Assembly (NCBI GenBank): GCA_018333715.1 | Contig: JAGXSW010000188.1 | Coordinates: 1-34,957, forward strand | Direction: 5' to 3' | DNA: 34,957 nucleotides | Origin: Syntrophaceae bacterium | Lineage (GTDB): Bacteria; Desulfobacterota; BSN033; UBA1163 | Part shown: piece after piece, positions 2,693 to 23,227 of the stretch | How positions within the stretch are numbered: position 1 is the first letter of the stretch | Layout: the number at the start of each line of letters is the position of its first letter | Translations under genes and position numbers: made by a program | The notes under the pieces: model-generated | What the model was told of the DNA's origin: nothing | Seen by the model: the letters and a program-made list of their open reading frames with translations, nothing else | Databases searched by the model: none

Positions 2693-4987
2693 TTACTTTG
2701 TTTTTTCTTTCAACGCTGCCAGCACCTTCTCAGGAGTAATCGGAAGTTCTTTAATTCTCACCCCTACCGCATCGTAAATGGCATTGGCAATGGCAGGGGC
2801 CGTGGGGACGAGGCCTGGTTCGCCAATGCCTTTGGCTCCGAAGGGACCAGAGGGGTCGTCTGTTTCGATCACAACAGCTTCAATATTCGGAACATCGGCG
2901 GCGGTTAGGATCTTATAATCCCGGAAATCTGGGTTGATCACCTTTCCGTTCTTAAGAATGAGCTGTTCAGTCAGGGCATATCCGATTCCCATTGCCGCCC
3001 CGCCATAGACCTGACCTTCTAAAAGCATCGGGTTAATCGCCCTGCCCACATCGTGGGCGGCTACATATTTCAGGATTTTAACCTGACCTGTCTCTTTGTC
3101 CACCTCGACCTCAACACCGTGTGTCCCGTAGGCATAGGTGACGGATAGATTTCCCTTGAATTCCCTATCGAGGTTTTCATTGGGAGGATCATAAAAATGC
3201 TCTGCCATAACCATTCTTCCGCCGGCGGTGTAGTGTGAAGCCCTGAGGATCTTTCCAAGAGGAGATTTCTTTTCCGGATCCAGTTTTGAAAAGATGGTGC
3301 GATCACGAATATCGAGATTTTCAGGGTTCTCTCCGAGAGATCGGGAAGCCACTTCGAGGAGTTGTTCCTTCACTTTTTTGGAAGCGCCTCTGGCTGAATT
3401 TCCTGCCACGAAGGTCGTTCGGCTGGCATGGGCTCCCACATCCCAGGGGCAGATGTCCGTATCGGTGTGGGTGACAATTACATCTTCTACCCTCACCCCG
3501 AGTTCTTCGGCGACGATCTGAGCGATGACCGTATCGGCTCCCTGTCCCATATCCGTGGCGCCGGTGATGACATTGACTGTTCCGAAATCATCGATCTTAA
3601 TGATTGTTCCACAACCGTCCGATTTGTAGACCCGGGCGCCTCCTCCTACATGGATCATCGATGCCATGCCAATTCCTCTTCCATCCCTTTTCCCCCGGTT
3701 CTGGCGCCAGTCTAACTTTTGGGCCACAACATCGATGCATTCCCTCAAGCCGCAGGTGGTGATGTTGAAATGCTGAGGGGTGACTTCTCCGGGCGTATTG
3801 GCGTTTCTCATTCTGAAGTCCAGGGGATCGATTCCAGCCATTTCAGCAAGGGCGTCAATTTGAGACTCAATGGCAAAGGTCGCCTGGGGGTTCCCATATC
3901 CTCGAAAGGCCTGGGAATAGGTGTTATTGGTATAGACGCATTTCGCCACATATCGAACATTGGGAACTTTATAGAGAGAGGAGATGGGCATCATCATGAC
4001 CGAAGGCGTGGTCGCTCCCCAGGAGGTATAGGCTCCGTTATCGAGAACCATCCGGACATCCCTGAAAGTGAATGTTCCATCTTTTGTGCAGCCCTGGGCG
4101 ATATCAATGACCGCAGGCTGTCTCGGCGAGGTGGCGAAAAACTCCTCTTCACGGGTGAAAATGATCTTCACAGGCTTACGGGTCTTGTAGGCCAAAAGGA
4201 TGGCGATGTATTCATAGGCGTAGGTGTCGAGTTTGCTTCCGAACGCCCCTCCGATCGTTGTCTTGATCACCCGGGCCTTTTTCCCCTCGAGCCCCATGGC
4301 AGCAAGCGCCTCCGTGTAATCCCGCTGTGCCAGCGCGGGAATCTGGGTATTGCTATATATCGTGAGATTGTTCCTGAGATCGAACCGAGCAACGCATCCG
4401 CTCGTTCCCATGCAGCAGTGGTTGACCCAGGTGAGTTTGAACCGGTCCTCTGCGACATGGGCCGAATTTTTTCTTGCTTCGTCCACATCTCCAGCGACAA
4501 GCCTCCATGGAAGGTTGAGGATATTGGTCGGTTTTTTCTCCTTTCCGCCCAAATGCTCCTCATGGATGAGGAGCGCTCCTTCTTTCATTGCATCTTCCGG
4601 ATCGAAGATGGCAGGAAGGATTTCGTATTCGACTCTGATCAAGCCCAATGCTTCCTCGGCAATATCCGGGTCTGTCGCAGCGACGGCCGCAACCTCATCG
4701 CGGTAGGAACAAACCTTATTCGCCTTCAGAGGCATATTGTCCTTGTAAAAACCGAATTTGATGAGCGGCGTATTATATCCCGTTAAGACTGCCTTGACCC
4801 CCGGGAGTCTCTCGGCCGCAGAGGTGTCCATATTGAGAATTCTTGCATGGGGATGGGGGCTGTAGAGGATTTTCCCCCAGAGCATCCCCGGGACTTTAAG
4901 GTCCTGGATATAGACCGCCTTTCCTGTGACTTTGTCCTCGGCATCCATTTTGGGAATTCGTTTTCCGATGTTGATGAAGTCTTGCAT
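2693..4987 (-). CDS. Xanthine dehydrogenase-family molybdopterin-binding large subunit
   Basis: 764 aa; GGAFGSK, AFRGYGNPQ, DMGQG, ASRTT and GAKGIGEP (catalytic Glu) motifs; SD AAGGAGGT. Confidence 0.95.
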   Translation of the reverse strand: MQDFINIGKRIPKMDAEDKVTGKAVYIQDLKVPGMLWGKILYSPHPHARILNMDTSAAERLPGVKAVLTGYNTPLIKFGFYKDNMPLKANKVCSYRDEVAAVAATDPDIAEEALGLIRVEYEILPAIFDPEDAMKEGALLIHEEHLGGKEKKPTNILNLPWRLVAGDVDEARKNSAHVAEDRFKLTWVNHCCMGTSGCVARFDLRNNLTIYSNTQIPALAQRDYTEALAAMGLEGKKARVIKTTIGGAFGSKLDTYAYEYIAILLAYKTRKPVKIIFTREEEFFATSPRQPAVIDIAQGCTKDGTFTFRDVRMVLDNGAYTSWGATTPSVMMMPISSLYKVPNVRYVAKCVYTNNTYSQAFRGYGNPQATFAIESQIDALAEMAGIDPLDFRMRNANTPGEVTPQHFNITTCGLRECIDVVAQKLDWRQNRGKRDGRGIGMASMIHVGGGARVYKSDGCGTIIKIDDFGTVNVITGATDMGQGADTVIAQIVAEELGVRVEDVIVTHTDTDICPWDVGAHASRTTFVAGNSARGASKKVKEQLLEVASRSLGENPENLDIRDRTIFSKLDPEKKSPLGKILRASHYTAGGRMVMAEHFYDPPNENLDREFKGNLSVTYAYGTHGVEVEVDKETGQVKILKYVAAHDVGRAINPMLLEGQVYGGAAMGIGYALTEQLILKNGKVINPDFRDYKILTAADVPNIEAVVIETDDPSGPFGAKGIGEPGLVPTAPAIANAIYDAVGVRIKELPITPEKVLAALKEKTK

Positions 4988-4999
4988 GAAACCTCCTTA

Positions 5000-5071
5000 A
5001 GCAGGTCAGGAGACCTGCTTCTACCCGATGATTCTTTGTTATTTGGCAGGTCAGGAGACCTGCCCCTACCC
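5000..5071 (-). repeat. Tandem REP doublet (27-bp GTAG-REP x2, 18-bp spacer)
   Basis: Minus strand GGGTAGGGGCAGGTCTCCTGACCTGCC (5045-5071) and GGGTAGAAGCAGGTCTCCTGACCTGCT (5000-5026); 45-bp period. Confidence 0.85.
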
Positions 5072-5128
5072 TGGTAGTTTCGAGGTTTCTAACCCTCACA
5101 GGGTAGTTTCGGGTCTCCTGACCCGAAA
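5072..5128 (+). repeat. Opposite-orientation REP(s) overlapping the RAYT 3' end
   Basis: GGGTAG-TTTCGGGTC-TCCT-GACCCGAAA at 5101-5128, plus a degenerate GGTAGTTTCGAGG... copy at ~5073. Confidence 0.7.
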
Positions 5129-5398
5129 TAACGCTTGATGTCTGAAAATTCGTATTGGAATATGTCGTTACATAGACCTTTTCTCAAAGGGTTTTGATAC
5201 ATATATCTTAATTTCTCAGTTAATTTCTTTTCGCTGAGAATGTTAAAATCGTAATAATCCGGCTGCCATAATTGATAAGTGTGTCCTTTCTTCTTTGGAA
5301 TCGGGAGCTGGATTTTAAATAGTGTTTCTTTATCCCATACCAAAAGATATTCAATGGCTTTTTTTGCAATATATTTCTTTATATCTCGTATGATGTCT

Positions 5399-5470
5399 GG
5401 AAGGTCAGGAGACCTTCCGCTACCCGCGGGTTGATTATTGCTCGGAAGGTCAGGAGACCTGTTGTTACCC
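5399..5470 (-). repeat. REP doublet in-frame inside the RAYT ORF
   Basis: REPs at 5399-5425 and 5444-5470, spacer GCGGGTTGATTATTGCTC; encodes GNNRSPDLPSNNQPAGSGRSPDLP. Confidence 0.85.
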
Positions 5471-5665
5471 AGTGATTCGCAAATCATGTGAATATGATCG
5501 GGCATGACAATAAATCCTTTTAATTTAAAATCCCCTCGTTCTTCATAGAACAACAAAGTGTTTACAGCTGCTTTAGCGATGTCTTTGTACTTAAATATCT
5601 CGACACGCTTATTTGTGACCATCGTAATAAAATGGTAGCCTTCGTTATATTTTCGTTTTTTCGAT

Positions 5666-5737
5666 GGAAGGTCAGGAGACCTTTCGCTACCCGCGGGTTG
5701 ATTATTGCTCGGAAGGTCAGGAAACCTGCCGCTACCC
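5666..5737 (-). repeat. REP doublet in-frame at the RAYT N-terminus
   Basis: REPs at 5666-5692 and 5711-5737 with the same 18-bp spacer; encodes GSGRFPDLPSNNQPAGSERSPDLP. Confidence 0.85.
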
Positions 5738-5771
5738 ATTGGTCTATCCATCACTGTTTCGTGCTTCGAAT

Positions 5772-6242
5772 TTATATTTTTTTGCTTGCTTCTTTAATAG
5801 CCTGGATGATCTGGAGATAACCGGTGCAGCGGCAGAGATTTCCCGCGATTGCGTTGCGGATCTCCTCCTCGGTGGGTTTCGGAGTTTCATCGAGAAGGGC
5901 CTTGGCCGACAAGACCATTCCGGGCGTACAGAAGCCGCACTGGACGGCTCCATTCTCGACAAAAGACCGCTGGATGGGGTGGAGATTCCCATCAACATCA
6001 GCCAATCCTTCAATCGTGATGACGTTTTTTCCATCCGTCTCCATTACGGGAAAGATGCAGGAATTGACGGCTTTCCCATTGATAAGGACGGTGCAGGCGC
6101 CGCATTCTCCCAGGCCACAGCCTTCCTTGGTTCCGGTGAGTTCCAGTTTCTCCCTCAGAACCTGTATCAGGGTGAGGTTGGGTTCAGCCTCGATTTGGAC
6201 GGGTTCGCCATTTAGTTTGAAATGAATGGTCTGTTTCATCAC
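5772..6242 (-). CDS. XDH-family [2Fe-2S] small subunit
   Basis: GTKEGCGLGECGACTV, QCGFCTPG and GNLCRCTGY motifs. Confidence 0.95.
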   Translation of the reverse strand: MMKQTIHFKLNGEPVQIEAEPNLTLIQVLREKLELTGTKEGCGLGECGACTVLINGKAVNSCIFPVMETDGKNVITIEGLADVDGNLHPIQRSFVENGAVQCGFCTPGMVLSAKALLDETPKPTEEEIRNAIAGNLCRCTGYLQIIQAIKEASKKI

Positions 6243-6420: not shown

Positions 6421-7287
6421 TTATTTTCTAGGCAATTTCACAGACTGCTTGATGGCTTTTGCAACAAGAACTGCGACCATTTCTCTCCGGTATTCCGCAG
6501 AACCCCGGATATCGGTGATTGGAGAGCACTCCTGTTTGGCCCAATCCCCCGCCCTTATGATGAGGCGTTCATCGAGGAGATTTCCCTCAAGAATCTTTTC
6601 TGTCTCTTTTGCCCTCAGGGGAGTTGGGGCCACTGCGCCGAGTGCGATCCGGGCCCGTTCGCATATCCCTGTTTTTGGATCAAGGGTTAAGAGAACAGCC
6701 ACATTGACCACAGAAAGATCCACGCTCTTTCGCCGCCCCAGCTTCAGATAGGCTCCCAGACTATTGGGAGGAGGAGAGGGCAGGATGATCTCCTTTAAGA
6801 TCTCTTTTTTATCGAGGGCGGTTTCACCGGGTCCAAGAAAGAAAGATGGGAGGGAAAGGCGTCTCTCTTCCATCCGGCTTACAAGAAGAACCTCTGCTTC
6901 ATAAACGAGCAGGGACGGAGCCGTTTCAGCCGAGGGAGAAGCCGTGCAGAGATTGCCGCCGAGGGTTGCCACATTGCGGATCTGAACCGAGCCGAGAACG
7001 CTGGAGGCCTCCGCCAGAAGGGGGAATCTCTTTTTGATCCGTTCGGACTGTTCGATGGTCCGGTGAGTGACCAGCGCCCCGATTTTAAACGTCCCATTAG
7101 ACTCAATTTGATCCAGCCCCTGGATTCCCTGGAGGGAGATGAGGACATCAGGGGATATCTTTTTCTGCTTGTTCATCACGATGGCATCGGTTCCGCCCGC
7201 GATCAATCTTGCCTTGTCCCCGTATTGACTTAGAAGAGAAAGGGCCTCCTCAAGGGTATGGGGTTTGAGGTAGTCGAACTTTTTCAT
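6421..7287 (-). CDS. XDH-family FAD-binding medium subunit
   Basis: AGGTD, IRNVATLGGNLC and DIRGSAEYR motifs; 288 aa with no Cys-rich 4Fe-4S insertion. Confidence 0.95.
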   Translation of the reverse strand: MKKFDYLKPHTLEEALSLLSQYGDKARLIAGGTDAIVMNKQKKISPDVLISLQGIQGLDQIESNGTFKIGALVTHRTIEQSERIKKRFPLLAEASSVLGSVQIRNVATLGGNLCTASPSAETAPSLLVYEAEVLLVSRMEERRLSLPSFFLGPGETALDKKEILKEIILPSPPPNSLGAYLKLGRRKSVDLSVVNVAVLLTLDPKTGICERARIALGAVAPTPLRAKETEKILEGNLLDERLIIRAGDWAKQECSPITDIRGSAEYRREMVAVLVAKAIKQSVKLPRK

Positions 7288-8024
7288 AGACGCCTCCGTT
7301 TCTCGCGGTAATCATTGCCGAGATAAGCCTTCTTAACCCCTTCGTCTTCGATTAAAACCTTTGCGTTTCCTTCCATGGTAATTCTGCCGGTCTCGAGCAC
7401 ATAGGCCCGATCAGCGATCCTGAGCGCGGCCCTTGCATTCTGCTCAACGAGAAGGATCGTCGTTCTATCCTCCTGCAATTTACGGATGACATTAAAAATC
7501 TCTATGACGACGAGGGGAGCCAAACCCAGAGAGGGTTCATCCAGGAGCATCAATTGGGGTCTTCCCATGATTGCCCGTCCGATGGAGAGCATCTGTTGCT
7601 CCCCGCCGCTCAATGTGCCGGCTTTTTGTTCTCTTCTTTCCTTAAGAATGGGGAAGAGTTCCATCACATAGCGGAGGTCTTTTTCAATATCTTTTCTCGA
7701 TTCTCTGGAGAATCGGAGAAACGCCCCAAGTTCCAGATTTTCGAAGACAGTGAGAGGGCCAAAGAGTTGCCTTCCCTCGGGCACATGAACAATTCCCTGT
7801 GCAACGATTTTCTCCGGAGAGCGCCGGGAGATCTCGGTCTTATTAAAGCGGATAGAGCCTGTTCGGGGCGGAGTGACTCCCGAAACCGTGTTCAGAAGGG
7901 TTGATTTGCCCGCGCCATTCGAGCCGATGAGGGCGACGATCTCTTCCTTTTCGATATGGAGAGAGAGGTCTTTCAGGGCATGGATCTGACCATAGTAAGT
8001 ATTGATGAGGTCAATGTTGAGCAT
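7284..8024 (-). CDS. livF: Liv-type ABC transporter ATP-binding protein (LivF-like)
   Basis: GSNGAGKST, HVPEGR, LSGGEQQML and LDEPSLGLAP motifs. Confidence 0.9.
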   Translation of the reverse strand: MLNIDLINTYYGQIHALKDLSLHIEKEEIVALIGSNGAGKSTLLNTVSGVTPPRTGSIRFNKTEISRRSPEKIVAQGIVHVPEGRQLFGPLTVFENLELGAFLRFSRESRKDIEKDLRYVMELFPILKERREQKAGTLSGGEQQMLSIGRAIMGRPQLMLLDEPSLGLAPLVVIEIFNVIRKLQEDRTTILLVEQNARAALRIADRAYVLETGRITMEGNAKVLIEDEGVKKAYLGNDYREKRRRL

Positions 8025-8027
8025 CCT

Positions 8028-8795
8028 TCATTCCTCTCCCAGGTAGGCCTGAATCACTTTTGGATCCTTCTGTACTTCTTCGGGGGTTCCTCCTGAGATC
8101 TTCTGCCCATAGTTGAGGACTGTAATTTTATCAGAGATTCCCATCACCAGGTTCATATCATGTTCAACCAGGATGATCGTGATTCCCATCTTTTTGATCT
8201 TCAATATCAGTTCCGCCATCTCTTCTGTCTCCCTGATGTTGAGACCTGCGACAGGTTCGTCAAGGAGGAGGAGTTTTGGTTTTCCGGCGAGGGCCCGGGC
8301 GATCTCGAGGCGTTTTTGCTCTCCGTAGGGAAGGCTGGAGCTGAGCCAGTCTGACTTGCTTTCGAGATGGAAGAAGCGGAGCAGGGAGGCCCCCTCTTCG
8401 GCCACCCGCCTCTCCTCCCTTTTAACCTTCGGAAGATGGAGGAGACAGTTTAGAAATTCTGATTCGGTCTGAGTATGAAGGCCGACCATGACATTCTCGA
8501 GGACGGTCATGTTGTGAAAGACCTGAAGGTTCTGGAAGGTCCGGGTGATTCCCTGATAGGCGATATGGAACGGTTTGAGTCTGGAAATCGTCTTACCTTC
8601 GAAGATGATCTTTCCGGAGGTGGGAGGATAAATTCCTGTGATGAGGTTGATCAGGGTGGTTTTGCCTGCGCCGTTAGGCCCGATGATCGCCGTGATCTCA
8701 TTCCGTCTGACCTCGAACGAAACGTCGTTGAGTGCGGCGACCCCGCCAAAATACTTCCGAATCCCCTCAGCCTTCAATATGATTTCGGAATTCAT
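8028..8795 (-). CDS. livG: Liv-type ABC transporter ATP-binding protein (LivG-like)
   Basis: GPNGAGKTT, RTFQN, LPYGEQKRLEIARAL and LDEPVAG motifs; likely start ATG 8795 (ORF extends to 8831). Confidence 0.9.
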   Translation of the reverse strand: MNSEIILKAEGIRKYFGGVAALNDVSFEVRRNEITAIIGPNGAGKTTLINLITGIYPPTSGKIIFEGKTISRLKPFHIAYQGITRTFQNLQVFHNMTVLENVMVGLHTQTESEFLNCLLHLPKVKREERRVAEEGASLLRFFHLESKSDWLSSSLPYGEQKRLEIARALAGKPKLLLLDEPVAGLNIRETEEMAELILKIKKMGITIILVEHDMNLVMGISDKITVLNYGQKISGGTPEEVQKDPKVIQAYLGEE

Positions 8796-8799
8796 AACT

Positions 8800-9810
8800 C
8801 TAAACTCTAAACTCTCCTCCTCTTTTTTCAATCATAGATTTAATCTTTCGCCTTCGATAGAAGTTGTAGAAGCCGACCACAATCCCTTCCGGAAGAAAGA
8901 CAAGGACAAGGGTGAGGATGGCCCCATAAGCGATGATATTATATTTTTCTGCGACATGAAGGAACTCTGAAAGAACGGTCAGAAGGCCTGCTCCGAAAAA
9001 AGCGCCCCAGACGCTTCCCATTCCTCCCACGATGACCATAGTGACCGCCTGGATGGAGTAATAGAAGTCGAAGCTCCGGGGGCTGATGAAGGTGATGTAA
9101 TGGGCATAGAGGCTTCCTGCAAGGGAGGCGAAGACGGCGCTCAGGACAAAGACCTTGGTCTTGTATTTATCCGTATCGATTCCCAGGGTGTTGGCGGCCA
9201 CTTCACTGCCGTGGATGGCCTTAAGCGCCCTTCCCACACGGGAGTTGACCAGGTTAACCGAGACGAGAATGCAGAAGAACACAAACGTCCAGATCAAATA
9301 GAAATTTTTGAAATCATTATCAAAGACGAATGCGCCGATGGAAAGGTGTGGAATTCCGGGGAAACCGGATGGACCTCCTGTGATCCGGTCCAGTTCCACC
9401 ATGAAGATGTGAACAATGATGCTGAATCCGAGCGTGGCCATCACCAGGTAGTGGCCCTTTAATTTGAGGGAAGGGTAGCCGACGAAGTAGGCGACCATCC
9501 CGGTGATGATCATGGCGAGGACGATCGTCGGCCAGGGGGGGAATCCGAAGGTGGCGGTGAAAATGGCGGAGAGATAGGCTCCCATCCCGTAGAAGGCGGC
9601 ATGGCCCAGGGAGATCTGTCCTGTAAAACCGATGAGCAGATTGAGGCCGATGACCACGATGGTATTGAGGCCGACGATATTCATCACCATGAAGTGGTAT
9701 TTATTCTTTACGAACAGTGGAATGAGGATGATAGCGAGGGCAAATATAATTAAAAATAAGGTCTCTTTCTTTCGGGTGAACGGCGCCATAGATTTAAATC
9801 GATTTCTCAT
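8800..9810 (-). CDS. livM: Liv-type ABC permease (LivM-like)
   Basis: GQISLGHAAFYG, LKGHYLVMATL and TGGPSG motifs; hydrophobic. Confidence 0.9.
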   Translation of the reverse strand: MRNRFKSMAPFTRKKETLFLIIFALAIILIPLFVKNKYHFMVMNIVGLNTIVVIGLNLLIGFTGQISLGHAAFYGMGAYLSAIFTATFGFPPWPTIVLAMIITGMVAYFVGYPSLKLKGHYLVMATLGFSIIVHIFMVELDRITGGPSGFPGIPHLSIGAFVFDNDFKNFYLIWTFVFFCILVSVNLVNSRVGRALKAIHGSEVAANTLGIDTDKYKTKVFVLSAVFASLAGSLYAHYITFISPRSFDFYYSIQAVTMVIVGGMGSVWGAFFGAGLLTVLSEFLHVAEKYNIIAYGAILTLVLVFLPEGIVVGFYNFYRRRKIKSMIEKRGGEFRV

Positions 9811-9832
9811 TGCAAAATTAGCATTGCAATTT

Positions 9833-9962
9833 TAATGGTTTCGCAAAAAGTCGTCTCACCGGTGAAAACCGGTGTCCAGGGTTTTGTATGAAATTACTGG
9901 ATTCCCCGATCAAGTCGGGGAATGACGATCTTTAGTTTTTTTGACTTTTTAAGAAACCATCA
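9833..9962. mobile_element. MITE family A, copy 2
   Basis: TIRs TAATGGTTTCGCAAAAAGTC / GACTTTTTAAGAAACCATCA; internal ACTGGATTCCCCGATCAAGTCGGGGAATGAC; AATTT direct repeat on both sides. Confidence 0.8.
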
Positions 9963-9988
9963 AATTTGCATTTTCCAATGATCTCTTT

Positions 9989-10873
9989 TTACACCCGCTC
10001 TGACTCCCCATAACCTAATAGTCCTGTCGGTTTGAAAAAGAGGACGAGCAGGAGGATCAAAAAGGCAAAAGCATTCTTAAACTTGGAAGAGATCAATCCG
10101 GCGCCGAGGGATTCCAGGACCCCCAGAATCAGTCCTCCGGCAACGGCGCCCGCATTATTTCCATAGCCGCCCAGGATTGCGGCAGAGAACCCCTTAAGGG
10201 CCAGCATGATTCCGGTGTCATAGGAGGAGGTGGTGATGGGCGCGATGATCATTCCTCCCACGGCGCCGATTCCTCCGCTCATGGCAAAAGAGAGCAAAAC
10301 CATCCGGTTGACGCTGATCCCCATGAGGGAGGCGGCCTTTCGATTGACTGCCGTGGCTCTCATCGCCTTTCCGATCAGGGTTCGATGAAAAAAGTATTGG
10401 AGAAAAATGACGACCCCGACCGTAATGCCAAAGATCCAGAGGTGTTGAGGAAGGATGGCTGCGCCTAAAATACGGATCACATTCTCTCCGGAGAAAGAGG
10501 GGAGGGGGACATTATCAGGGCCCCATGCCAGAAGCGCCGTTCCCCGGATGGTTGAGGAGAGGCCGATTGTGATGAAGACGAGGACGATGATGGCCTTCGA
10601 TCTGGCGGCCCGGATAGGTCCTCTTTCGATCAGAGCGCCCAGAAGGATTATCGTTGCCATGGAGAGAAAGAAGGAGAGGATGAGGGGAATTCCCAGAAGC
10701 GAATAATAGGTATACATCATCATCCCGCCCAGGGTGACAAACTCACACTGGACAAAGTTGACGATCCCCGTGGCGTTGTGGATGATATTAAAACCAAGGG
10801 CCACCAGGGCATAGATGGCCCCTATGGTGAGGCCGGTAAGGACAAATTGCAGTATCTGCTCGTAAATTCCCAT
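9989..10873 (-). CDS. livH: Liv-type ABC permease (LivH-like)
   Basis: GAIYALVALGFNII, GKAMRA and LKGFSAAILGG motifs. Confidence 0.9.
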   Translation of the reverse strand: MGIYEQILQFVLTGLTIGAIYALVALGFNIIHNATGIVNFVQCEFVTLGGMMMYTYYSLLGIPLILSFFLSMATIILLGALIERGPIRAARSKAIIVLVFITIGLSSTIRGTALLAWGPDNVPLPSFSGENVIRILGAAILPQHLWIFGITVGVVIFLQYFFHRTLIGKAMRATAVNRKAASLMGISVNRMVLLSFAMSGGIGAVGGMIIAPITTSSYDTGIMLALKGFSAAILGGYGNNAGAVAGGLILGVLESLGAGLISSKFKNAFAFLILLLVLFFKPTGLLGYGESERV

Positions 10874-13903: not shown

Positions 13904-15652
13904 TCAGGGATCAATCCTTTTGCGGTCATTTCCCTTCTTTAAACTTTCTCTCAGTTTTCTTGTTAATTCTTCCTCCACTTTCAGTGTTTCAGGATGAATG
14001 GCGACCCCATAATCGTCTCTGGCTTTTTCGAGGCTGACATATCCTTCGAGCACATCTCTCTCGACCCTTTCAGGTTCACGCTCCATGGGATTCCCACAGC
14101 CTCCTCCGCCGGCCGCATCGATTGTCACTACATCCCCTGGTTTAAGCTGCGTCAAACCAAAAGGATTTCCAGGGACTCCATTGACCAGGAATTGTGCCCT
14201 GGCTCCAGGGTTTCCACCAAAGAGCCCTTCTGGGGCATGGATGTGCCTTCCTGCCTGGATTCCAAGATTAACAGGTGACTGAGGTCCATACTGATCATCT
14301 GGGATTCTAAAGACCTCCCTTTGTCCAAGACCTCCCTTCATCCTGCCCGGCCCCCCTGAATCGACAAGGAGTTCCCTTTTCTCAATGATCAGAGGCGTGT
14401 CGCTTTCGATTATTTCAACGGGCGTGTTCGCGCCGTTGGCGGGAAAGATGTAAACATAATGCCCGTCACTGGAGGCGCTGGCTCCCATTCCCCCCCCCCT
14501 GATGATCACGGAATGCCAGGGTTTCCCATTCCTCCTTTTCCCATAGAAAACATTCATCTGAGCGGGTGTTCCTCCGCTTGCGGCAATCACTTTATTGGAG
14601 GCGACTCCGGAGAGGGCTCGATAAATAATCTCGGTCAGAAAATGTCCGATGACGAGCCGCGCCGCCACGGCCGCGGGGAATTTGCAGTTGACCACCGTGC
14701 CCTCCGGCGCCTTGAGTGTGATGGGACTTGCGCAGCCGTCGTTGTTAGGGATGTCCGGGCCAAACATGCTTTTTATGGCCATGAATACATAGGCATAGGT
14801 GAAGTTATAAACGACATTTCCTCCCCAGTTCACCTGAGGGGAGGATCCATTTAGGTTCACGATGATATCGCTTCCCTTGACTTCAACCGTTGTTTTAATC
14901 ACCACATCTTGTTGGCCCTTCATCTGCTCGATCATGCCTTCAGCTTGATAGATACCATCCGGAATCTTCTCAATCTCTTCCCTCATGCTCTTTTCTGTGC
15001 GGCTGATAATCTGGTCTGCCAGGTCATCGAGATGATCCAACCCATTTTCCCTGAGCATCTGACAGATCTTCTCGGCGCAGACATGGTTGGCTGCAATCTG
15101 AGATCGAATATCTCCAATCACCTCATCGGGAGTCCGGACATTCCAGCGGATCATGTCCATCACGGATTGGTTCAGGATTCCTCCGTCGTAGAGTTTCACG
15201 AGCGGGATGAAGAGTCCTTCCTCGAAGACATCATGATTGTCAGAGGAGACACGACCTCCGATATCCGAGTGATGAAAAACGCAGGCGGTAAAAGCAACCA
15301 ATTTTCCATTGTAAAAGACAGGACTCATGACACAGACATCATTCAGATGTCCTGCCAGAGCCCAGGGGTCATTGGTAATGAAGATGTCCCCGGGTTCGTA
15401 GGTTTCCAGAGGAAGCTTGGTTACAAGATTCTTGATTCCCAGCGCCATGGCTCCGGATTGGCCGGGTGTTGCGAAGGATCCCTGCGCCAACTCTCTCCCT
15501 TTCTGGTCCGTGAACATGCAGGTATAATCATGGGCATCCCTGAGCAAGCTGGAGAAGGCGGTCCGGGCAACTGCGCTATCCGCTTCATCCACAACGGAAA
15601 TCAATCTTCGCCACAGTATTTCTAACGTAATGGGGTCAAAGGTTCCTCCCAT
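13904..15652 (-). CDS. Hydantoinase B/5-oxoprolinase-family subunit
   Basis: RTAFSSLLRDAHD, TNDPWALAGHLND, HHSDIGG, FEEGL and DSGGPGRMKGG motifs. Confidence 0.93.
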   Translation of the reverse strand: MGGTFDPITLEILWRRLISVVDEADSAVARTAFSSLLRDAHDYTCMFTDQKGRELAQGSFATPGQSGAMALGIKNLVTKLPLETYEPGDIFITNDPWALAGHLNDVCVMSPVFYNGKLVAFTACVFHHSDIGGRVSSDNHDVFEEGLFIPLVKLYDGGILNQSVMDMIRWNVRTPDEVIGDIRSQIAANHVCAEKICQMLRENGLDHLDDLADQIISRTEKSMREEIEKIPDGIYQAEGMIEQMKGQQDVVIKTTVEVKGSDIIVNLNGSSPQVNWGGNVVYNFTYAYVFMAIKSMFGPDIPNNDGCASPITLKAPEGTVVNCKFPAAVAARLVIGHFLTEIIYRALSGVASNKVIAASGGTPAQMNVFYGKRRNGKPWHSVIIRGGGMGASASSDGHYVYIFPANGANTPVEIIESDTPLIIEKRELLVDSGGPGRMKGGLGQREVFRIPDDQYGPQSPVNLGIQAGRHIHAPEGLFGGNPGARAQFLVNGVPGNPFGLTQLKPGDVVTIDAAGGGGCGNPMEREPERVERDVLEGYVSLEKARDDYGVAIHPETLKVEEELTRKLRESLKKGNDRKRIDP

Positions 15653-15719: not shown

Positions 15720-17813
15720 CTATTCGTTTTTAAGGTTTATCCACAGGAATCCAAAATCATCCACTGAAATCGAACCATCCTCGCCGACAATGACCGTGGA
15801 CTCTTTTTCTTCAATAATAGCAGGCCCTTTGAAGGTTGCCTTCGGAAAAAGCTGGTAGCGATCATAGACCGTGTAAAAGATAAAGTCTTTTGCCTTAGGG
15901 GAGTAAGCCTTGCGCTTCCCTTTGATTGCCTTAATCAGAGAATCTCCCGTCTTATTAATATGTTGAAATTGAATCAGCCGTTCAGGGAGACTCGCTCTGA
16001 CTTTGAAATTGATGAACTCCACTTCGGAATCGGGATACGTCCTTCCGTATAATTTTTCATAGACCTCATCAAATCTGCGGCGGACCTCCTCCCTCCCCAT
16101 CTTTGCGAAATCTCTTCCGGAAATCGGGACGTTGGTTTCCGAACCCTGGCCGACAAAGCGCATATCAAGAGATCTTTCGAATTGGATATCTTTTTCTGAG
16201 GCCTGTTTCTTGAGTATCTTTGCCGCCTCCTCTTCCAGTTCCTTCAAAATCCCTTCAATTTCATTAAAATCAGAAGCCGTTAGAGCAACCTTGTGACTTC
16301 TGAGCAGGTCAAAGGCTCGAGGGGCGGTAAAAAAGCCAAGAGCCGAGCCCACTCCGGCGTTGGGCGGGACAAGCAGGCGGGGAGCCCCCAATTTTTTAGC
16401 AAGACCATAGGCATGTACCGGTCCTGCTCCACCAAAGGCAACAATCGTTACGAGGCTGGGGTTTCCTCCTTTTTCGGCGATGTGTGTTTTGGCGGCGGCG
16501 GCCATAGTTTCATTGATAAGGTCGTGGATTCCCCATACGGCCTGGATGAATTTGACCCCCAGAGGCCTGGCCACCTTTTCCTCGACCCCGAGTCTTGCTG
16601 CTTCCTTGTCGAGCTTCATTTTACCGCCAAGGAAGTAATTCTCATCGAGATAACCCAGCAGGAGATCGGCATCGGTGACACAAGGGTCCATCCCTCTTAT
16701 GCCATAACAGATGGGTCCAGGATCTGCGCCGGAGCTTTCCGGCCCCACCTGAAGTGTTCCCAGGCGACTCACCCTTGCGATGCTTCCGCCTCCTGCCCCA
16801 ATCTCCATCAAGTCAACGACAGGCACCTGAATGGTTAGTCCGCTTCCCTTCATAAATCTCTGGACACGGCCGACTTCAAATGTTGGGACGACGCCGGCCT
16901 CCCCTTTCTGAATCAAGCAGGACTTGGCGGTTGTGCCTCCCATATCGAAACAGAACATTTCTGGAATATTGAAAAGCCGGCCATAAAATTGACCCGCAAT
17001 GACTGCAGCCGTAGGTCCTGACTCGATGATTCGGACCGGAAACTCTGACGCTGTTTCGACAGAGGTGACTCCTCCACTGGAAAGCATGATGAAGAGTTTC
17101 CCCTTAAAGCCAATGGCCTCCAGCCTTTTCGCCAATTTGGAAAGGTATCGACCTGTCAGAGGTTTCACATAGGCGTTGGTGACTGTGGTGCTTGTTCTCT
17201 CGTACTCCTTAATCTGCGGCAAGACCCTGAAGGATATGGAGACCGATATTTCGGGCGCTTCCTTTTCAATGATCTCTTTGAGCATCAGTTCATTGGCCGG
17301 GTTCTCGAAAGAGTTGATCAGGCAGACCGCAATCGATTCCACACCAAGCTTGAGAATCGCCCGAACGACCTGTTTTGCCTCACGGGGATCCAACGGCTTC
17401 AGGACGCTTCCATCGCTTCGGATTCTCTCGTCCACTTCAAAACGGAGATGCCGCGGGATGAGAGGTTTTGGAAATTCGGCGAACACATCGTAAGGGGCAT
17501 ATCGAATTCCCCTCCCGATCTCCAGGACATCCCTGAAGCCCTTTGTGGTGATCAGCCCTGTTTTGGCTCCCTTTCTCTCGATAATCGAATTGATGACCAG
17601 GGTTGTTCCATGAATCACTTCATCGAGTTTCTCCACGAAATCCGGAGTATATTTCTCCATTCCTCGAATTCCATCCTCCACGGCATCCGAGGGGTCTCTG
17701 GGGGTGGTCAGACATTTGTAAGTTTTTATCTCTCCGGTTTGATCGTTCAGCAGGACAAAATCGGTGAAGGTGCCTCCAATGTCACAACCCAGCCGATAAA
17801 CCTTGTCAGCCAT
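15720..17813 (-). CDS. Hydantoinase A/5-oxoprolinase-family ATP-binding subunit
   Basis: DIGGTFTD, HGTT, EYERTSTT, ESGP, DMGGTT, GAGGGSIA and GADPGP motifs. Confidence 0.95.
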   Translation of the reverse strand: MADKVYRLGCDIGGTFTDFVLLNDQTGEIKTYKCLTTPRDPSDAVEDGIRGMEKYTPDFVEKLDEVIHGTTLVINSIIERKGAKTGLITTKGFRDVLEIGRGIRYAPYDVFAEFPKPLIPRHLRFEVDERIRSDGSVLKPLDPREAKQVVRAILKLGVESIAVCLINSFENPANELMLKEIIEKEAPEISVSISFRVLPQIKEYERTSTTVTNAYVKPLTGRYLSKLAKRLEAIGFKGKLFIMLSSGGVTSVETASEFPVRIIESGPTAAVIAGQFYGRLFNIPEMFCFDMGGTTAKSCLIQKGEAGVVPTFEVGRVQRFMKGSGLTIQVPVVDLMEIGAGGGSIARVSRLGTLQVGPESSGADPGPICYGIRGMDPCVTDADLLLGYLDENYFLGGKMKLDKEAARLGVEEKVARPLGVKFIQAVWGIHDLINETMAAAAKTHIAEKGGNPSLVTIVAFGGAGPVHAYGLAKKLGAPRLLVPPNAGVGSALGFFTAPRAFDLLRSHKVALTASDFNEIEGILKELEEEAAKILKKQASEKDIQFERSLDMRFVGQGSETNVPISGRDFAKMGREEVRRRFDEVYEKLYGRTYPDSEVEFINFKVRASLPERLIQFQHINKTGDSLIKAIKGKRKAYSPKAKDFIFYTVYDRYQLFPKATFKGPAIIEEKESTVIVGEDGSISVDDFGFLWINLKNE

Positions 17814-18029: not shown

Positions 18030-18032
18030 TAA

Positions 18033-20054
18033 TTAATTGTGGACAAAATTTGCATTGACTCTTGGGCCATTTTTCATGAAATTGTCAATTCCGATATTTC
18101 TATCCTGCGTTTTGAAACAATCGCCAAAGATCCTGGCTTCGATTTTCAATCCTTCCGCAAGAGTCGTTTTTGCCCCATCCAAAATTGCCTTTTGAAGAAG
18201 GGCATCGATCTTCCGACTCAAATGGCCAATATCAACCTCTGGAAGCTTTGAGGGAATAGGAATCGGGCCTTTTGGAATGGCAGGAACTTTGGCTTGCCCT
18301 GAAAGAATCTTGCTAACCCATCCCATGGCGGCTTCAATGAGATCACCCTCCACTTCCTCCTGAATCAGACCGATCTCTTTGGCCTGGGAGGAAGAGATCG
18401 GGTTCGAATGCCGGAGGATGGGCCACGCCTTTTCCAATCCTACCAGTCTCGGCAACCTCTGTGTTCCACCCGCTCCAGGGATGAAACCGAGCTTGGGTTC
18501 GGGTTGGGCTACAAAAACCTTCTGGCCCTTTGTGGCAATGCGGCCGGTACAGCACATGGCTATTTCATTTCCTCCGCCAAAGGCCAATCCATTCATGGCG
18601 CAGACCACAGGTTTACCCAAATTCTCGATGAGATCAAGAACAGAGTAGTTGTTGAGGCAACCGGTTTCTCCTTCCTCGGCTGTTTTTTGAGCAGCCAGCA
18701 TCCCGATGTCTGCTCCTGAAACAAATGCCCTTGTTCCGAATCCGGTTAGCACCGCTCCCTTTATTTTCGGGTCCTTCTGTATCCCTGTGAAAATCTCTCT
18801 CAATTGCTCAAAGACATCCGCATTGAGGGCATTGAGGACTTTAGGCCTCCGGATTTTAACGAGGGCGACATCTCCCTTATCTTCCCTGAAGACAACAGGT
18901 ATCTTCCATGGTTGACCTGAAGCCGCCTGTTTTTTTAGCATGTCAGCCACTTTAAACCCGGTGTTCTCTTTGGCATAGACTTCAACCAGTTCAAGGGCCT
19001 TTTTGACGCCGATCTTATTCATCATGGAGAAGGGAGAATTCAGAACCAGTCCGGCATCCATGGCCAATTCAAGATCGCCGATATTGGAAATGCCGCTTTC
19101 GACAATTTCGCAGATCATTCCGAAATAGGCCCCGATGACCCGATTCGAAACCGATTCATACATTACAGGCGTATAGTCAACGGTTTCGCCTTTTGCGGCT
19201 GTCTCCCAGGGTTTTCCGGATTTCACCTGATCATCAAGAATCTTCGGGGAGCGATACCAGGGCATGATCTTGGAGGTCATTTCATTTAGCCCATGCTGGG
19301 TGATGGGGTTTCCTCCTGCGAGATTATGAGCGGTGAATGGACCCACGCCCATTCCAAGGGCTTTCTGGACGATCACATCCGCCTGTTTGACATTGGCCAG
19401 TCCTTTTTCAACGGTTAGGGCTGTGGCTTCGAAGAGGCCTTCAAAGATGGGATCGACCGCATAACCATAACGGCTTTTCACTTTAATCGGAGCCTTTCCA
19501 ATGAATTCGTATAATTTCATCAAATATTCCGTCAGGGCAGGGTCGGTGTCTTTTCCGGGAACAATTTCCACCAGGATATTTCTTTCCGCCGGGAAAAAAT
19601 AGTGGATAACCAAACACCTGTTTTTATCTTCCATCTTCCCAAAGATCACCTCCGGCTCCATGTGTGAAGAATTGGAAGCAAAGATCGCTGTTTTCGGGCA
19701 GGATGCCTGACATTGATCGAAGATCTTATGCTTGACATCCTCTCTCTCAAAAGCGGCCTCGACCACAAAGTCAGCATCGGCGATTTTTCCATAATCGGTT
19801 GTGAAGAGGATGTTTTTGAAGATGGCATCAGCGGCCTCTTTCTTGAAGAATTTCTTTTCAGCAGCTTTCGCCATCTTCGATTCCGCCTTCCTGGAACCTG
19901 CATCGAGGGCCGCCTGAACGATATCTACCACGACGACAGGCACCCCGTATAAATACAGATTCTGGCTGAAATGAAGAGCAATGTCCGGGCCGATATTCCC
20001 CGAACCAATGACACCGATCTTCCGAATGGTCCGACCAAATAGTGTAAATGACAT
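18033..20054 (-). CDS. Fused 3-hydroxyacyl-CoA dehydrogenase (N-terminal) / enoyl-CoA hydratase (C-terminal)
   Basis: GVIGSGNIG Rossmann motif, ASNSS, HYFFP; C-terminal crotonase AFVSGADI, GGGNE, QPEPKLGFIPGAGGTQRLPRLVG. Confidence 0.93.
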   Translation of the reverse strand: MSFTLFGRTIRKIGVIGSGNIGPDIALHFSQNLYLYGVPVVVVDIVQAALDAGSRKAESKMAKAAEKKFFKKEAADAIFKNILFTTDYGKIADADFVVEAAFEREDVKHKIFDQCQASCPKTAIFASNSSHMEPEVIFGKMEDKNRCLVIHYFFPAERNILVEIVPGKDTDPALTEYLMKLYEFIGKAPIKVKSRYGYAVDPIFEGLFEATALTVEKGLANVKQADVIVQKALGMGVGPFTAHNLAGGNPITQHGLNEMTSKIMPWYRSPKILDDQVKSGKPWETAAKGETVDYTPVMYESVSNRVIGAYFGMICEIVESGISNIGDLELAMDAGLVLNSPFSMMNKIGVKKALELVEVYAKENTGFKVADMLKKQAASGQPWKIPVVFREDKGDVALVKIRRPKVLNALNADVFEQLREIFTGIQKDPKIKGAVLTGFGTRAFVSGADIGMLAAQKTAEEGETGCLNNYSVLDLIENLGKPVVCAMNGLAFGGGNEIAMCCTGRIATKGQKVFVAQPEPKLGFIPGAGGTQRLPRLVGLEKAWPILRHSNPISSSQAKEIGLIQEEVEGDLIEAAMGWVSKILSGQAKVPAIPKGPIPIPSKLPEVDIGHLSRKIDALLQKAILDGAKTTLAEGLKIEARIFGDCFKTQDRNIGIDNFMKNGPRVNANFVHN

Positions 20055-20078
20055 AAGTTCCTCCTCTCAAAAGATCAT

Positions 20079-20159: not shown

Positions 20160-20163
20160 TTTT

Positions 20164-21792
20164 TTAAAAGATTGATGGTTCCTTGAATTCTCCGTAAACC
20201 TCTTTGAAGACCCTGGTCATCTCTCCCACAGTGGCATAGGCCTTACAGCATTCGAGAAGATAGGGCATCACATTTCTTTCCGCTCTTGCGGCGTTTTCAA
20301 GGTCTTTCAACAATTGGGCCACCGTCCGGTTATCCCTTTCCCGTTTCACTTCTTTAAGCCGCCGGATCTGTTCTTCCGCAGACCCCAACCGGTACTCATG
20401 GAGTTCGACCTCCATCTCCTCGCCTTCGGTATATTTATTCACTCCAACTTTAATCAATTCCCCCTTCTGGACCCCCTTTTCAAATTCATAAGCCTGCCTC
20501 GCCACCTCTCTCTGGACATAGCCCGTTTCCACGGCCTTGGTCATTCCACCCATCTCATCGACCTGTTTCATCTCTTCCACGATCTTCTCTTCCATCTGTT
20601 TGGTCAGTGTCTCAATGAAATACGAACCGGCCAAAGGATCAACCGTGTCGCGCATTCCTATCTCCTCCATCAGAATCTGGAACGTCCTGAGAGAGAGAAG
20701 GGCTGCCCTCGGCGTGGGGATGGTATAGGCTTCGTCAAAGGAGCAGAGCGCAGTGGTCTGGGCGCCGCCCAGCGCAGCGGCAAGCGCATAGTAAGCGCCA
20801 CGGATGATATTGTTTTCCGGCTGGGCTTTGGTCATTCCATATCCTCCGCCTCCGAAGATGCCGCGGAGAAGAAGAGACCGGTTATCCTTTGCCCCGTAAC
20901 GCTCTTTGAGATTTTTCGCCCAGAGTTTTCTTGCTGCTCGGAATTTCGCCACCTGCTCCCAGAGATTTCCGAAAATATTGAGATTGAAGGTAAACCCTCT
21001 TACGAAATCGTCGATGGAATGGCCTCGGCGGAGAACCTCTTCGATATAAGTGTTGGCAATCTGGAAGGCATACGCAATTTCCTGGGCGGGAGAACACCCT
21101 GATTCACGGATATGGTATCCGCAGATGCTGACCGGATTCGTCCGGGGGAGCTCCTTCATCGAATATTCGATCGTATCCCCGATCAGACAAACCGAAGGTT
21201 TCACCGGAAAGATCCAGGCCCCTCGGCCAATCATTTCTTTAAGGATATCGTTTTGAGGAGTCGCGCTCACCCGATCCTTTTTGAATCCGAACTTTTCGGA
21301 CGTCGCCTGAAACATGGCGAGCATGATGCTTGCCACAGCATTGATAGTGAGTCCCGCGCCAATCCGGTCGAGTGGAATTTCCCGAAAAGCCGCCTCAAAA
21401 TCTCTCAGGGAATCAACAGCCATCCCGACTCTTCCGACTTCTCCTTCGGACAATGGGTCATCGGAATCGAGGCCCATCTGGGTGGGAAGGTCGAAGGCGA
21501 CATTGAGGCCGGTCTGCCCATGGGAGATCATCAGTTTAAAGCGTTCATTGGTCTCTTCCGGAGTCCCGAACCCCGTATACTGGCGAGTTGTCCATTCCCT
21601 GCTCCGGTAGCCCTGGGGGTGAATTCCACGGGTGAAAGGATATTCACCGGGATAGGCCAAATCCTTCTCAGGATCGAAACCGGCGTCCTCCATATCCTTC
21701 CGGGTATAGACCGGTTTGATATGGATGCCCGACTGGAGAATCACATCAAGTATTTCATCTTTATCGTTTTTGATATATCTGGCGACACCCAT
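20164..21792 (-). CDS. B12-dependent acyl-CoA mutase, large (substrate-binding) subunit, MCM family
   Basis: PGEYPFTRG, RQYTGFG, AFDLPTQMG, QNDILKE, GYHIRE and DPLAGSY motifs; likely start ATG 21792 after GGGAG. Confidence 0.93.
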   Translation of the reverse strand: MGVARYIKNDKDEILDVILQSGIHIKPVYTRKDMEDAGFDPEKDLAYPGEYPFTRGIHPQGYRSREWTTRQYTGFGTPEETNERFKLMISHGQTGLNVAFDLPTQMGLDSDDPLSEGEVGRVGMAVDSLRDFEAAFREIPLDRIGAGLTINAVASIMLAMFQATSEKFGFKKDRVSATPQNDILKEMIGRGAWIFPVKPSVCLIGDTIEYSMKELPRTNPVSICGYHIRESGCSPAQEIAYAFQIANTYIEEVLRRGHSIDDFVRGFTFNLNIFGNLWEQVAKFRAARKLWAKNLKERYGAKDNRSLLLRGIFGGGGYGMTKAQPENNIIRGAYYALAAALGGAQTTALCSFDEAYTIPTPRAALLSLRTFQILMEEIGMRDTVDPLAGSYFIETLTKQMEEKIVEEMKQVDEMGGMTKAVETGYVQREVARQAYEFEKGVQKGELIKVGVNKYTEGEEMEVELHEYRLGSAEEQIRRLKEVKRERDNRTVAQLLKDLENAARAERNVMPYLLECCKAYATVGEMTRVFKEVYGEFKEPSIF

Positions 21793-21807
21793 CTTCAACT
21801 CCCATGT

Positions 21808-21881
21808 GAATGGTGAATCGTGGTTCGTGAATCGTGAAAGATTCAAAATACGAGTCACCAATCACCTATCACAATTCACGT
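21808..21881. repeat. Inverted heptamer repeat arrays
   Basis: GTGAATG GTGAATC GTGGTTC GTGAATC GTGAA ... TCACCAA TCACCTA TCACAAT TCACG. Confidence 0.6.
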
Positions 21882-22277
21882 TCTCTGTTTAATGTGTTCT
21901 TTGATCCACTTAATCGATTCGTCAAAAGGAGTGCCTCCAGGGAAAACCCCCTCGATCCCCATCTTTTGCAGGAGGGGGATATCTCTTGTGGGAATGACGC
22001 CGCCGACCACGACGGTGGCGTCCTCGAATTCCTTTTCTTTCATCTTCTTCATTAATTTTTCACAGATGGGCAGATGGGCGCCTGACATGATGGATAAACC
22101 GATGACATCCACATCCTCCTGAAGGGCGGTTTGGATGATCTGATCAACCGTTTGATGAAGGCCGGTATAGATCACCTCCATTCCGGCATCGCGCAGCGCC
22201 TGGGCAACCACCTTCGCGCCACGGTCATGGCCGTCCAGGCCGGGCTTTGCAACTAAGATGCGGATCTTTCTTTCCAC
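21876..22277 (-). CDS. Acyl-CoA mutase B12-binding small subunit
   Basis: KPGLDGHDRGAK (DxHxxG), GLSIMSG and VGGVIP motifs; likely GTG start 22277 after GAGGG. Confidence 0.95.
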   Translation of the reverse strand: MERKIRILVAKPGLDGHDRGAKVVAQALRDAGMEVIYTGLHQTVDQIIQTALQEDVDVIGLSIMSGAHLPICEKLMKKMKEKEFEDATVVVGGVIPTRDIPLLQKMGIEGVFPGGTPFDESIKWIKEHIKQRT

Positions 22278-22313
22278 TTTATTCCCTCGATCTACCAATC
22301 TACAATCTGAAAT

Positions 22314-22519
22314 CTAACCAAAGATATTTGAATTTTTCTAAATAATTCCCTCCCCCTTCGACGCCTGCCTGCGCGAAGCCGCTTCGGCGAAGGCAGGGGG
22401 GAGGGTGAGGGTGGGGGTGGACAAAGCAGAGACCGATTGGTCCCCCCTCCCCTTCATCCCCTCCCGCCGTGGGGAGGGGAGATTTTTTTGGGCCAAAATG
22501 TTAGAGATAAATTCTCAGA
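22314..22519. repeat. Dispersed composite hairpin element family C, copy 1
   Basis: Begins CTAACCAAAGATATTTGAA...AATAATTCCCTCCCCCTTCG, ends GTTAGAGATAAATTCTCA; same ends at 34449-34567; nested GCCTGCCTGCGCGAAGCC core also at 31674-31750. Confidence 0.65.
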
Positions 22520-22540
22520 CTTTAATGTGTAAGAATCCAA

Positions 22541-23227
22541 CTATGGAGCCATTCTCCCTTCGTTGATCTCTTTGAGAACGATTTCCATTCCCCTTTCGAG
22601 ATGGGCTCTGACAAGGTTTTCCACAAGCCGTGGGTTATTTTTCTTCATCGCTTCGAGCATCTGACGATGGTCTGCAATAGAAGTCTTAAAACCGTTGGGC
22701 GTATGGAGCAGGGCAGAACGGTAACGGTAAAAATAGTCGCGATAGCCATTGATCATTTCGATCAATTTTTTGCTCTTGCAGGATTTATAAAGGAGGTCAT
22801 GAAATTCCGTATAGAGCTGAACCGCCTTCTCATCCTCTCCTTTTTTCAGGGCCTTCTCCGATTCATCCACCTTTTTTTCGAGGGCCGCGATTTTGTCCGG
22901 CGTAATGTGTGTAGCGGCCATATAAGAGGCGTAGCTTTCAAGAGCAATTCGAATGCCGAAGATTTCTTCCACATCCTCATTTGTGAATTCCCTGACGGCA
23001 AACCCTCCTTTTGGAAGCCGTGAGACGAGATCGTCTCGTTCCAGTTTGTGAAAAGCTTCTCTGACAGGGGTGCGGCTGATCCCTATCTGGTTGGCCAGCG
23101 TTTCCTCAACCAGCCGTTGCTTAGCCTTTAATTTTCCGTGAAGAATGGACTTCTTTAATGACTCGTAGACCATTTCACGCATAGGTTTCCTCTTGCCTAC
23201 CTTGATTGCTCCAAATATGTTTTCCAT
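22541..23227 (-). CDS. GntR-family (FCD domain) transcriptional regulator
   Basis: wHTH LVEETLANQIGISRTPVREAF; FCD domain FHDLLY and DHRQMLEAM. Confidence 0.95.
   Translation of the reverse strand: MENIFGAIKVGKRKPMREMVYESLKKSILHGKLKAKQRLVEETLANQIGISRTPVREAFHKLERDDLVSRLPKGGFAVREFTNEDVEEIFGIRIALESYASYMAATHITPDKIAALEKKVDESEKALKKGEDEKAVQLYTEFHDLLYKSCKSKKLIEMINGYRDYFYRYRSALLHTPNGFKTSIADHRQMLEAMKKNNPRLVENLVRAHLERGMEIVLKEINEGRMAP

Follow-up and report, generated by a model that had tools for sequence, protein, structure and literature searches.

We analyzed contig JAGXSW010000188.1 (assembly GCA_018333715.1) of a Syntrophaceae bacterium, whose full length of 34,957 nt is referred to here as the window, and in particular the gene cluster at positions 2693..23227. 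Together with an operon on another contig of the same genome (C202), this cluster is probably a Desulfobacterota form of the iaa gene set, which would degrade indole-3-acetate independently of O2 with a ring-opening lactamase of a lineage other than IaaCE. This reading draws on direct observations of gene content, clade membership, shared motifs, operator positions and the near-exclusive distribution of two lactamase types. The genome comprises 2.63 Mb in 269 contigs, with a completeness of 88.6%. The open reading frame listing and the family scans place every cluster gene named in the first-pass annotation on the minus strand, co-oriented as described there: a GntR/FCD regulator, a split B12 mutase, a fusion of 3-hydroxyacyl-CoA dehydrogenase and enoyl-CoA hydratase (HAD-ECH), hydantoinases A and B, a PaaK-like ligase, LivKHMGF, and the FAD, FeS and Mo subunits of an enzyme of the xanthine dehydrogenase (XDH) family.

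The same annotation had proposed that the cluster is of the iaa type and that its host is probably a strict anaerobe. This proposal holds: the mutase, the Mo-enzyme, the dehydrogenase and the transferase all fall with Iaa proteins, and the genome has a benzoyl-CoA pathway as well as a partial dsrB. Contrary to what had been suggested, the lineage is not a new one, because iaa operons were already predicted in strict anaerobes, namely Desulfatiglans anilini, strain NaphS2, Desulfocarbo indianensis and Ferroglobus placidus, sulfate reducers among them (passages on iaa operons in PMC8360864). The absence of the acyl-CoA dehydrogenase, CoA transferase and thiolase from the window, taken at first pass as a hint of a variant route, is no such sign, because a genome search found the dehydrogenase and the transferase on C202 and a candidate for the thiolase on contig C107. 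Neither the pathway nor its presence in strict anaerobes is new; the differing parts are the lactamase and the ligase, both apparently displaced. Judged from the sequences, the real variant features are a non-orthologous hydantoinase and a PaaK-type ligase, not those singled out before.

Core enzymes shared with known iaa clusters

The iaa cluster of Aromatoleum aromaticum EbN1 and A. evansii is reportedly the subject of Ebenau-Jehle 2012 and Schuehle 2016. Our reference set consisted of EbN1's own IaaF, IaaB, IaaL and IaaM, with the metagenome locus L081 standing in for the remaining Iaa proteins. This locus is one of two metagenome contigs retrieved with a primer sequence given in PMC8360864. 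Its gene order (GntR, thiolase, ligase, hydantoinases A and B, dehydrogenase, mutase, Mo-enzyme, transferase, binding protein) is the iaa order, its counterparts of EbN1 IaaF, IaaB, IaaL and IaaM show 94-98% identity to these four proteins and share 90% clusters with them, and its hydantoinase B has 564 residues, the length given for IaaE in PMC8453981. L081 ends at possible first codons of IaaP, and no named IaaP sequence was found among the matches listed (best 120 of 2223).

The large subunit of the mutase and IaaH form a single clade, set apart from three outgroup mutases with support 100 (FastTree, 108 rows after 8 duplicates were dropped, with a long-branch warning). Its conserved Tyr and Arg are, we assume by analogy with methylmalonyl-CoA mutase, the binders of the substrate carboxylate. 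At the positions of Gly314 and Cys350 the three outgroups carry Gln and Asn, whereas IaaH carries Ala and Cys, from which we infer a pocket with room for an aryl group. The start of this gene is most likely at 21792 and not at 21861, since the resulting 542 aa are the length of nearly all 120 homologues among the matches listed. The closest named records for the mutase are labelled Thermodesulfobacteriota, Deltaproteobacteria, Syntrophorhabdus or Syntrophaceae, and these labels suggest that the host belongs to Desulfobacterota.

The Mo subunit falls in a common clade with IaaK (support 100, 39-row tree). At seven motif sites it is closely similar to IaaK, and the other aligned XDHs deviate at most of these sites; identities of the three XDH-family subunits to IaaK, IaaJ and IaaI are listed in Table 1. 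The domain content of the HAD-ECH fusion fits the role of IaaP, and the protein is 52% identical to a fusion adjoining an IaaC-type gene. The expectation that the cluster proteins would group with Iaa proteins and not with other families was thus borne out in part: the mutase and the Mo-enzyme lie in Iaa clades and the Hcr and Apc cut-offs are missed, whereas the hydantoinase lies outside the IaaCE clade and the ligase outside the IaaB family. Separately, seven related loci (L019, L024, L025, L096, L100, L101 and L102) carry a second, divergent XDH-family enzyme (35-39% identical to the one in the window) beside iaaL, iaaF or etf genes, without several of the usual motifs.

Contig C202 carries, in one direction, genes for a family III CoA transferase and an acyl-CoA dehydrogenase, followed by etfB, etfA, fixC and fixX. 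In a search of the genome with EbN1 IaaF, this dehydrogenase is the top match; it groups with IaaF (support 99) and possesses the GGG motif, a hallmark of IaaF according to passages of PMC8360864; the transferase is 38% identical to EbN1 IaaL, with which it shares a clade (support 100). Three genomes of the same genus have the same separate iaaL-iaaF-etf operon, operator included, and in 6 of 80 GTDB loci the transferase, dehydrogenase and etf genes adjoin gntR and are divergent from it. Among 35 loci with an IaaF-class gene, some overlapping and with cut flanks, etfB was present in 20 and fixC in 9 within the fetched stretch. The thiolase on C107, a truncated gene, is 42% identical to IaaA and 58-63% identical to the in-cluster thiolases of five related loci.

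Regarding downstream metabolism, oah and had score over the cut-off, and two BamB-like gene sets were recognized by gene order on contigs C164 and C5, one of them followed by bamC-I-like genes; NCBIfam gave these only a below-cut-off aldehyde oxidoreductase match. The alpha subunit of an indolepyruvate oxidoreductase is also over the cut-off, the oxidoreductase being on contig C52. The partial dsrB, broken by a contig end, scores 324 bits against a cut-off of 341.5, and neither dsrA nor class I benzoyl-CoA reductase A was found over the cut-off in this incomplete genome.

Synteny is conserved in other genomes. In 80 GTDB loci containing the mutase, with flanks that end at 10 kb or at contig ends, partner genes at identities of at least 55% comprise the small subunit (77 loci), hydantoinase A (61), hydantoinase B (55) and the ligase (33), and the Mo subunit occurs in 19 at an identity of at least 50%; the sample is biased to the type of the window because the loci were chosen with window-derived peptides. 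The gene assembly is not due to chance.

Two lineages of ring-opening lactamase

The hydantoinase B of the window, whose type we call W, and IaaE belong to separate clades in a tree of 77 rows, which includes 54 of 150 added representatives and does not have the characterized OplAB among its rows. Joining W and IaaE in one clade was rejected by the approximately unbiased test (p-AU 4.5e-7, 26 rows). This test was not blind, because proximity to W guided the choice of the added representatives and the groups received their names once the 77-row tree was available. No IaaC-type gene was found elsewhere in this genome, which is 88.6% complete. Like the lactamase of the window, the caprolactamase CapAB (PDB 6YRA; PMC8453981, in part) has two subunits, phosphate-binding motifs and an Asp-His-Asp-His metal tetrad; unlike CapB, the hydantoinase B of the window is missing the four-residue loop that bears Tyr136, and the two subunits score under the cut-offs for CapA and CapB. 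A single-sequence structural model of hydantoinase B had a mean predicted local distance difference test score of 36.8 and was not used. Passages of PMC8453981 describe ring opening in anaerobic auxin degradation as proposed only, and the passages on iaa operons in PMC8360864 contain no discussion of a hydantoinase.

At the position expected for the first metal-binding His of the lactamase tetrad, the proteins of the IaaE clade (L081:11131-12825 and the IaaE orthologues) have Gln, so that it is IaaE, and not the enzyme of the window, that is atypical in this respect.

To define the distribution of the two types, we considered as mutase genomes those with a match at E 1e-200 or better, which gave 45 of the 201 genomes of the phylum; the W-type hydantoinase B occurs in 24 of the 201, all of them among these 45. 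Three genomes whose mutase, 59-61% identical, lies outside the main clade were left out, and 42 were counted. An identity of 55% or more defined the IaaC type, one genome being typed from a fragment, and three genomes with IaaC-like matches but no mutase at the threshold were left uncounted. Within the 42, 23 have W only, 16 the IaaC type only, one has both and two have neither. On the mutase tree the two types interleave, with 7 changes among 84 labelled rows, and the clusters with true IaaCE orthologues have the same clades of mutase, PaaK-type ligase and Mo-enzyme as the W-type clusters. This near-exclusive, interleaved pattern is that expected of two enzymes doing the same job, and it fits a displacement of the lactamase gene.

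None of the matches listed for the W-type enzyme (best 120 of 3119) comes from a cultured, named strain, and the plasmid collection contains no iaa cluster (best mutase match 45.7%, best hydantoinase B match 39.8%). Four RNA runs of one sediment study had 6-9% of words, and their contigs were mostly less than 95% alike, that is, from relatives, which is no evidence of expression or habitat. A literature search that did not extend to Ebenau-Jehle 2012 and Schuehle 2016 gave no publication that describes the 15-bp operator (see below) or an iaa cluster with a hydantoinase other than IaaCE, and the swap may therefore have been published already.

The ligase scores 402 against a cut-off of 646 for TIGR02155 (PaaK), and its closest solved structures are annotated as phenylacetate-CoA ligases; the best IaaB-like genes of the genome, with at most 35% identity, lie outside the cluster. 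An accessory module was observed in the related loci L146:7069-16364, L147:424-6570, L105:11045-19702 and L170, comprising an IaaCE-like paralogue (51-59%), a TRAP or Liv transporter and an F390-type ligase. Three of these loci also have a small protein that resembles the glyoxalase/epimerase type. The module possibly feeds a related lactam into the pathway.

Operator, feature map and transposase insertion

A 15-bp operator-like motif is present in exactly three copies in the 2.63 Mb of the genome, ahead of gntR, livK and the C202 transferase gene, and in none in each of five shuffles. The operator links three promoters in this genome and is no proof of IaaR orthology. With a second copy and a putative promoter at approximately 12234-12267, ahead of livK, the cluster probably consists of two transcription units; the promoter upstream of gntR was not listed by a consensus promoter scan. 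In L081, copies with one mismatch are found ahead of iaaR and at the far end of the locus. The same motif also lies upstream of central-metabolism-like genes in other families (L157:901, L158:6035 and L160:6026), which suggests a wider type of GntR regulon. The features of the window are compiled in Table 1.

Table 1. Features of the cluster and its regulatory sites; positions are those of the window, and percentages are identities to the Iaa protein named.
Feature	Position	Strand	Remarks
Putative gntR promoter	-35 TTGACA 23300-23305, 17-nt spacer, -10 TATAAA 23277-23282	-	Conserved; operator-like site just downstream
15-bp operator-like site TGGATACWGTATACA	23252..23266	-	Kept upstream of gntR in close relatives; 1 of 3 exact genome copies
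GntR/FCD regulator	22541..23227	-	IaaR-like, 30%; reciprocal best hit test against IaaR failed
B12-binding mutase small subunit	21876..22298	-	IaaG-like, 48%
Acyl-CoA mutase large subunit	20164..21792	-	IaaH clade, 55%; Tyr72, Arg190 kept; pocket Gly314, Cys350
HAD-ECH fusion	18033..20054	-	IaaP-like role predicted from domain content
Hydantoinase A, ATP-binding subunit of ATP-dependent lactamase	15720..17813	-	35% to IaaC; both phosphate-binding motifs intact
Hydantoinase B, lactamase metal subunit	13904..15652	-	Separate W clade, 30% to IaaE; Asp42-His102-Asp105-His127 tetrad intact
PaaK/F390-type aryl-acetate CoA ligase	12310..13605	-	Outside IaaB family
Second exact operator copy	12234..12248	-	Overlaps putative -10 element upstream of livK
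LivK-type binding protein	10960..12099	-	Best genome hit of EbN1 IaaM, 29%
LivH, LivM, LivG, LivF ABC transporter subunits	7284..10873	-	Family scans
XDH-family FAD subunit	6421..7287	-	IaaI-like, 38%
XDH-family 2Fe-2S subunit	5772..6242	-	IaaJ-like, 48%
REP-associated tyrosine transposase	gene 5089-5754, element 4999..5754	-	Scores 91 bits with NF047646 (cut-off 80); accompanied by three REP-like doublets, of which one lies in its reading frame
XDH-family Mo subunit	2693..4987	-	IaaK clade, 50%; active-site motifs in common with IaaK; ribosome-binding site intact 3' of insertion

The transposase is an inserted passenger outside the pathway. Its gene sits between those of the FeS and Mo subunits and leaves the ribosome-binding site of the latter intact, and in 35 related loci with both subunits the corresponding gap measures from -1 to 499 bases and contains no transposase gene. 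It is the sole copy in the assembly, in which the repeat unit has 37 matches, 8 of them on this contig.

Several neighboring genes were also observed. At 23422-27833, a divergent unit encodes a FAD-linked oxidase, a CCG/4Fe-4S protein and a second FAD-linked oxidase (GlcD-like, far below the cut-off); this unit adjoins the cluster in one of the 80 GTDB loci. Positions 1-1620 encode a multi-PAS sensor cut at the window edge, and a related sensor is found 3' of the Mo subunit gene in two genomes of the same genus. At 1939-2448 there are two small open reading frames, the second with a below-cut-off Pfam match to TumE (E 2.9e-4), possibly the remnant of a toxin-antitoxin system.

Proposed pathway, alternatives and significance

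All the pathway steps described here were derived from orthology. Indoleacetate would be imported by the Liv transporter and converted by the PaaK-type ligase to indoleacetyl-CoA, for which the indolepyruvate oxidoreductase may be a further source; the first-pass annotation had CoA activation follow ring opening, whereas the Fig. 1 legend of PMC8360864 makes it the first step. The Mo-hydroxylase would then put a water-derived oxygen on C2 to give the 2-oxo lactam, which the W-type ATP-dependent lactamase would open to (2-aminophenyl)succinyl-CoA. The C202 transferase is predicted to shift CoA to the other carboxyl of this compound, and the B12 mutase to form (2-aminobenzyl)malonyl-CoA, from which the GGG-type dehydrogenase would produce 2-aminocinnamoyl-CoA by decarboxylation, with EtfAB and FixCX as the putative recipients of the electrons. 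Finally, the HAD-ECH fusion and the C107 thiolase would yield acetyl-CoA and 2-aminobenzoyl-CoA, the latter entering the benzoyl-CoA pathway, and the GntR protein would repress the three promoters through their common operator.

The host set and the Aromatoleum iaa cluster have in common the IaaGH mutase, the IaaIJK Mo-hydroxylase, IaaF with its GGG motif and IaaL; a GntR regulator, a Liv-type binding protein, a HAD-ECH fusion, a candidate IaaA-like thiolase and an operator that is one base off add to the likeness. Unlike that cluster, the host has a lactamase of another clade, a PaaK-type ligase in place of IaaB, a full Liv transporter, etfBA-fixCX beside iaaF and a transposase insertion, and its genes are spread over at least three places in the genome. 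Like the strict anaerobes with predicted iaa operons (PMC8360864, in part), the host, probably a strict anaerobe itself, has both an orthologue of iaaF and a paralogue of ETF.

Several observations weigh against assigning the cluster to indole-3-acetate. The hydantoinases are not orthologous to IaaC and IaaE, the pocket of the W-type lactamase is unlike that of IaaE, and a search of the ligase against IaaB gave no BLAST match at E 1e-3. LivK is only 29-30% identical to IaaM, and most relatives have TRAP transporters or none nearby. The C107 thiolase, broken by a contig end, has no operator copy. The regulator, with its low identity to IaaR, failed the reciprocal best hit test, and the exact 15-bp motif occurs in 16 other genomes of the phylum, 15 of them without this mutase (the reversed control gave 2 matches). 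The one-mismatch copies in the Aromatoleum-type locus are for this reason not specific, and the use of the operator as proof of IaaR orthology is weakened; none of the five motif sites inspected in other phylum genomes lies in an iaa cluster. The trees were built with FastTree or quick IQ-TREE runs with few outgroups and long-branch warnings, and the Fisher p of 1.4e-8 for the exclusivity of W and IaaC types overstates the case because kin are not independent. Furthermore, the two lactamase types adjoin each other in the related loci L146 and L147, an arrangement that is also compatible with different substrates.

The last point leads to the principal alternative, in which the chemistry is the same and the substrate is another. 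The W-type lactamase would then be no stand-in for IaaCE and would define an undescribed sister pathway for a different N-heteroaryl-acetate, such as a ring-substituted indoleacetate, or an entry at free oxindole-3-acetate, leading to a substituted arylsuccinyl-CoA. Resemblance to Iaa proteins is lowest in the three parts that meet the intact ring system (the lactamase, the ligase and the binding protein), and Desulfocarbo indianensis has three IaaF paralogues (PMC8360864, in part). However, the Mo-enzyme, which also binds the intact ring, has the motifs of IaaK, clusters with true IaaE orthologues rely on ligases and Mo-enzymes of these same clades, and the W and IaaC types swap across genomes and are seldom found together. 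In L146 and L147, where both are present, the second lactamase is an IaaE-like paralogue of greater distance (57-59%), encoded in a module that brings a transporter and a ligase of its own. We consider the substrate difference unlikely on balance, and a separate pathway defined by the W-type enzyme equally doubtful. If it were true, over half of the sampled iaa-like clusters of the phylum would be mis-assigned, and the mutase/hydroxylase/dehydrogenase scaffold would have switched substrate several times through swaps of its ring-opener.

Much less probable is a cluster of broad range, in which several aryl- and heteroaryl-acetates and arylsuccinates would enter the mutase/dehydrogenase core, indoleacetate being one among them. 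The PaaK fold is that of a general aryl-acetate ligase, relatives add a second ligase and differing transporters, and IaaF and IaaL tolerate the absence of the amino group in analogues (passages of PMC8360864); most loci nevertheless retain the dedicated lactamase and hydroxylase, an argument that the main substrate has a lactam-forming ring. A chance assembly or unrelated functions (4-hydroxybenzoyl-CoA reductase, ketone carboxylase or ordinary methylmalonyl-CoA mutase) are extremely improbable, since HcrA, although the top NCBIfam match of the Mo subunit, stays below its cut-off (626 vs 995), as do HcrB (120 vs 405), HcrC (167 vs 258) and, far below, ApcC (313 vs 1500), ApcD (130 vs 1500), CapA (529 vs 1000) and CapB (246 vs 1000), and since synteny is conserved, the operator is shared by the promoters and the pocket residues are unlike those of the outgroup mutases.

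If the cluster is indeed an iaa gene set with a displaced lactamase, two distant lactamase clades would perform the same job and offer a natural comparison for the ring-opening step, and annotation by similarity to IaaCE would leave the ring-opener unrecognized in 23 of the 42 genomes sampled. The passages on IaaF in PMC8360864 call its electron acceptor unknown and note an ETF paralogue in strict anaerobes, with no mention of FixCX; etfBA-fixCX, co-regulated with iaaF in this genome, is a candidate for that acceptor. The operator, in turn, provides a testable regulon.

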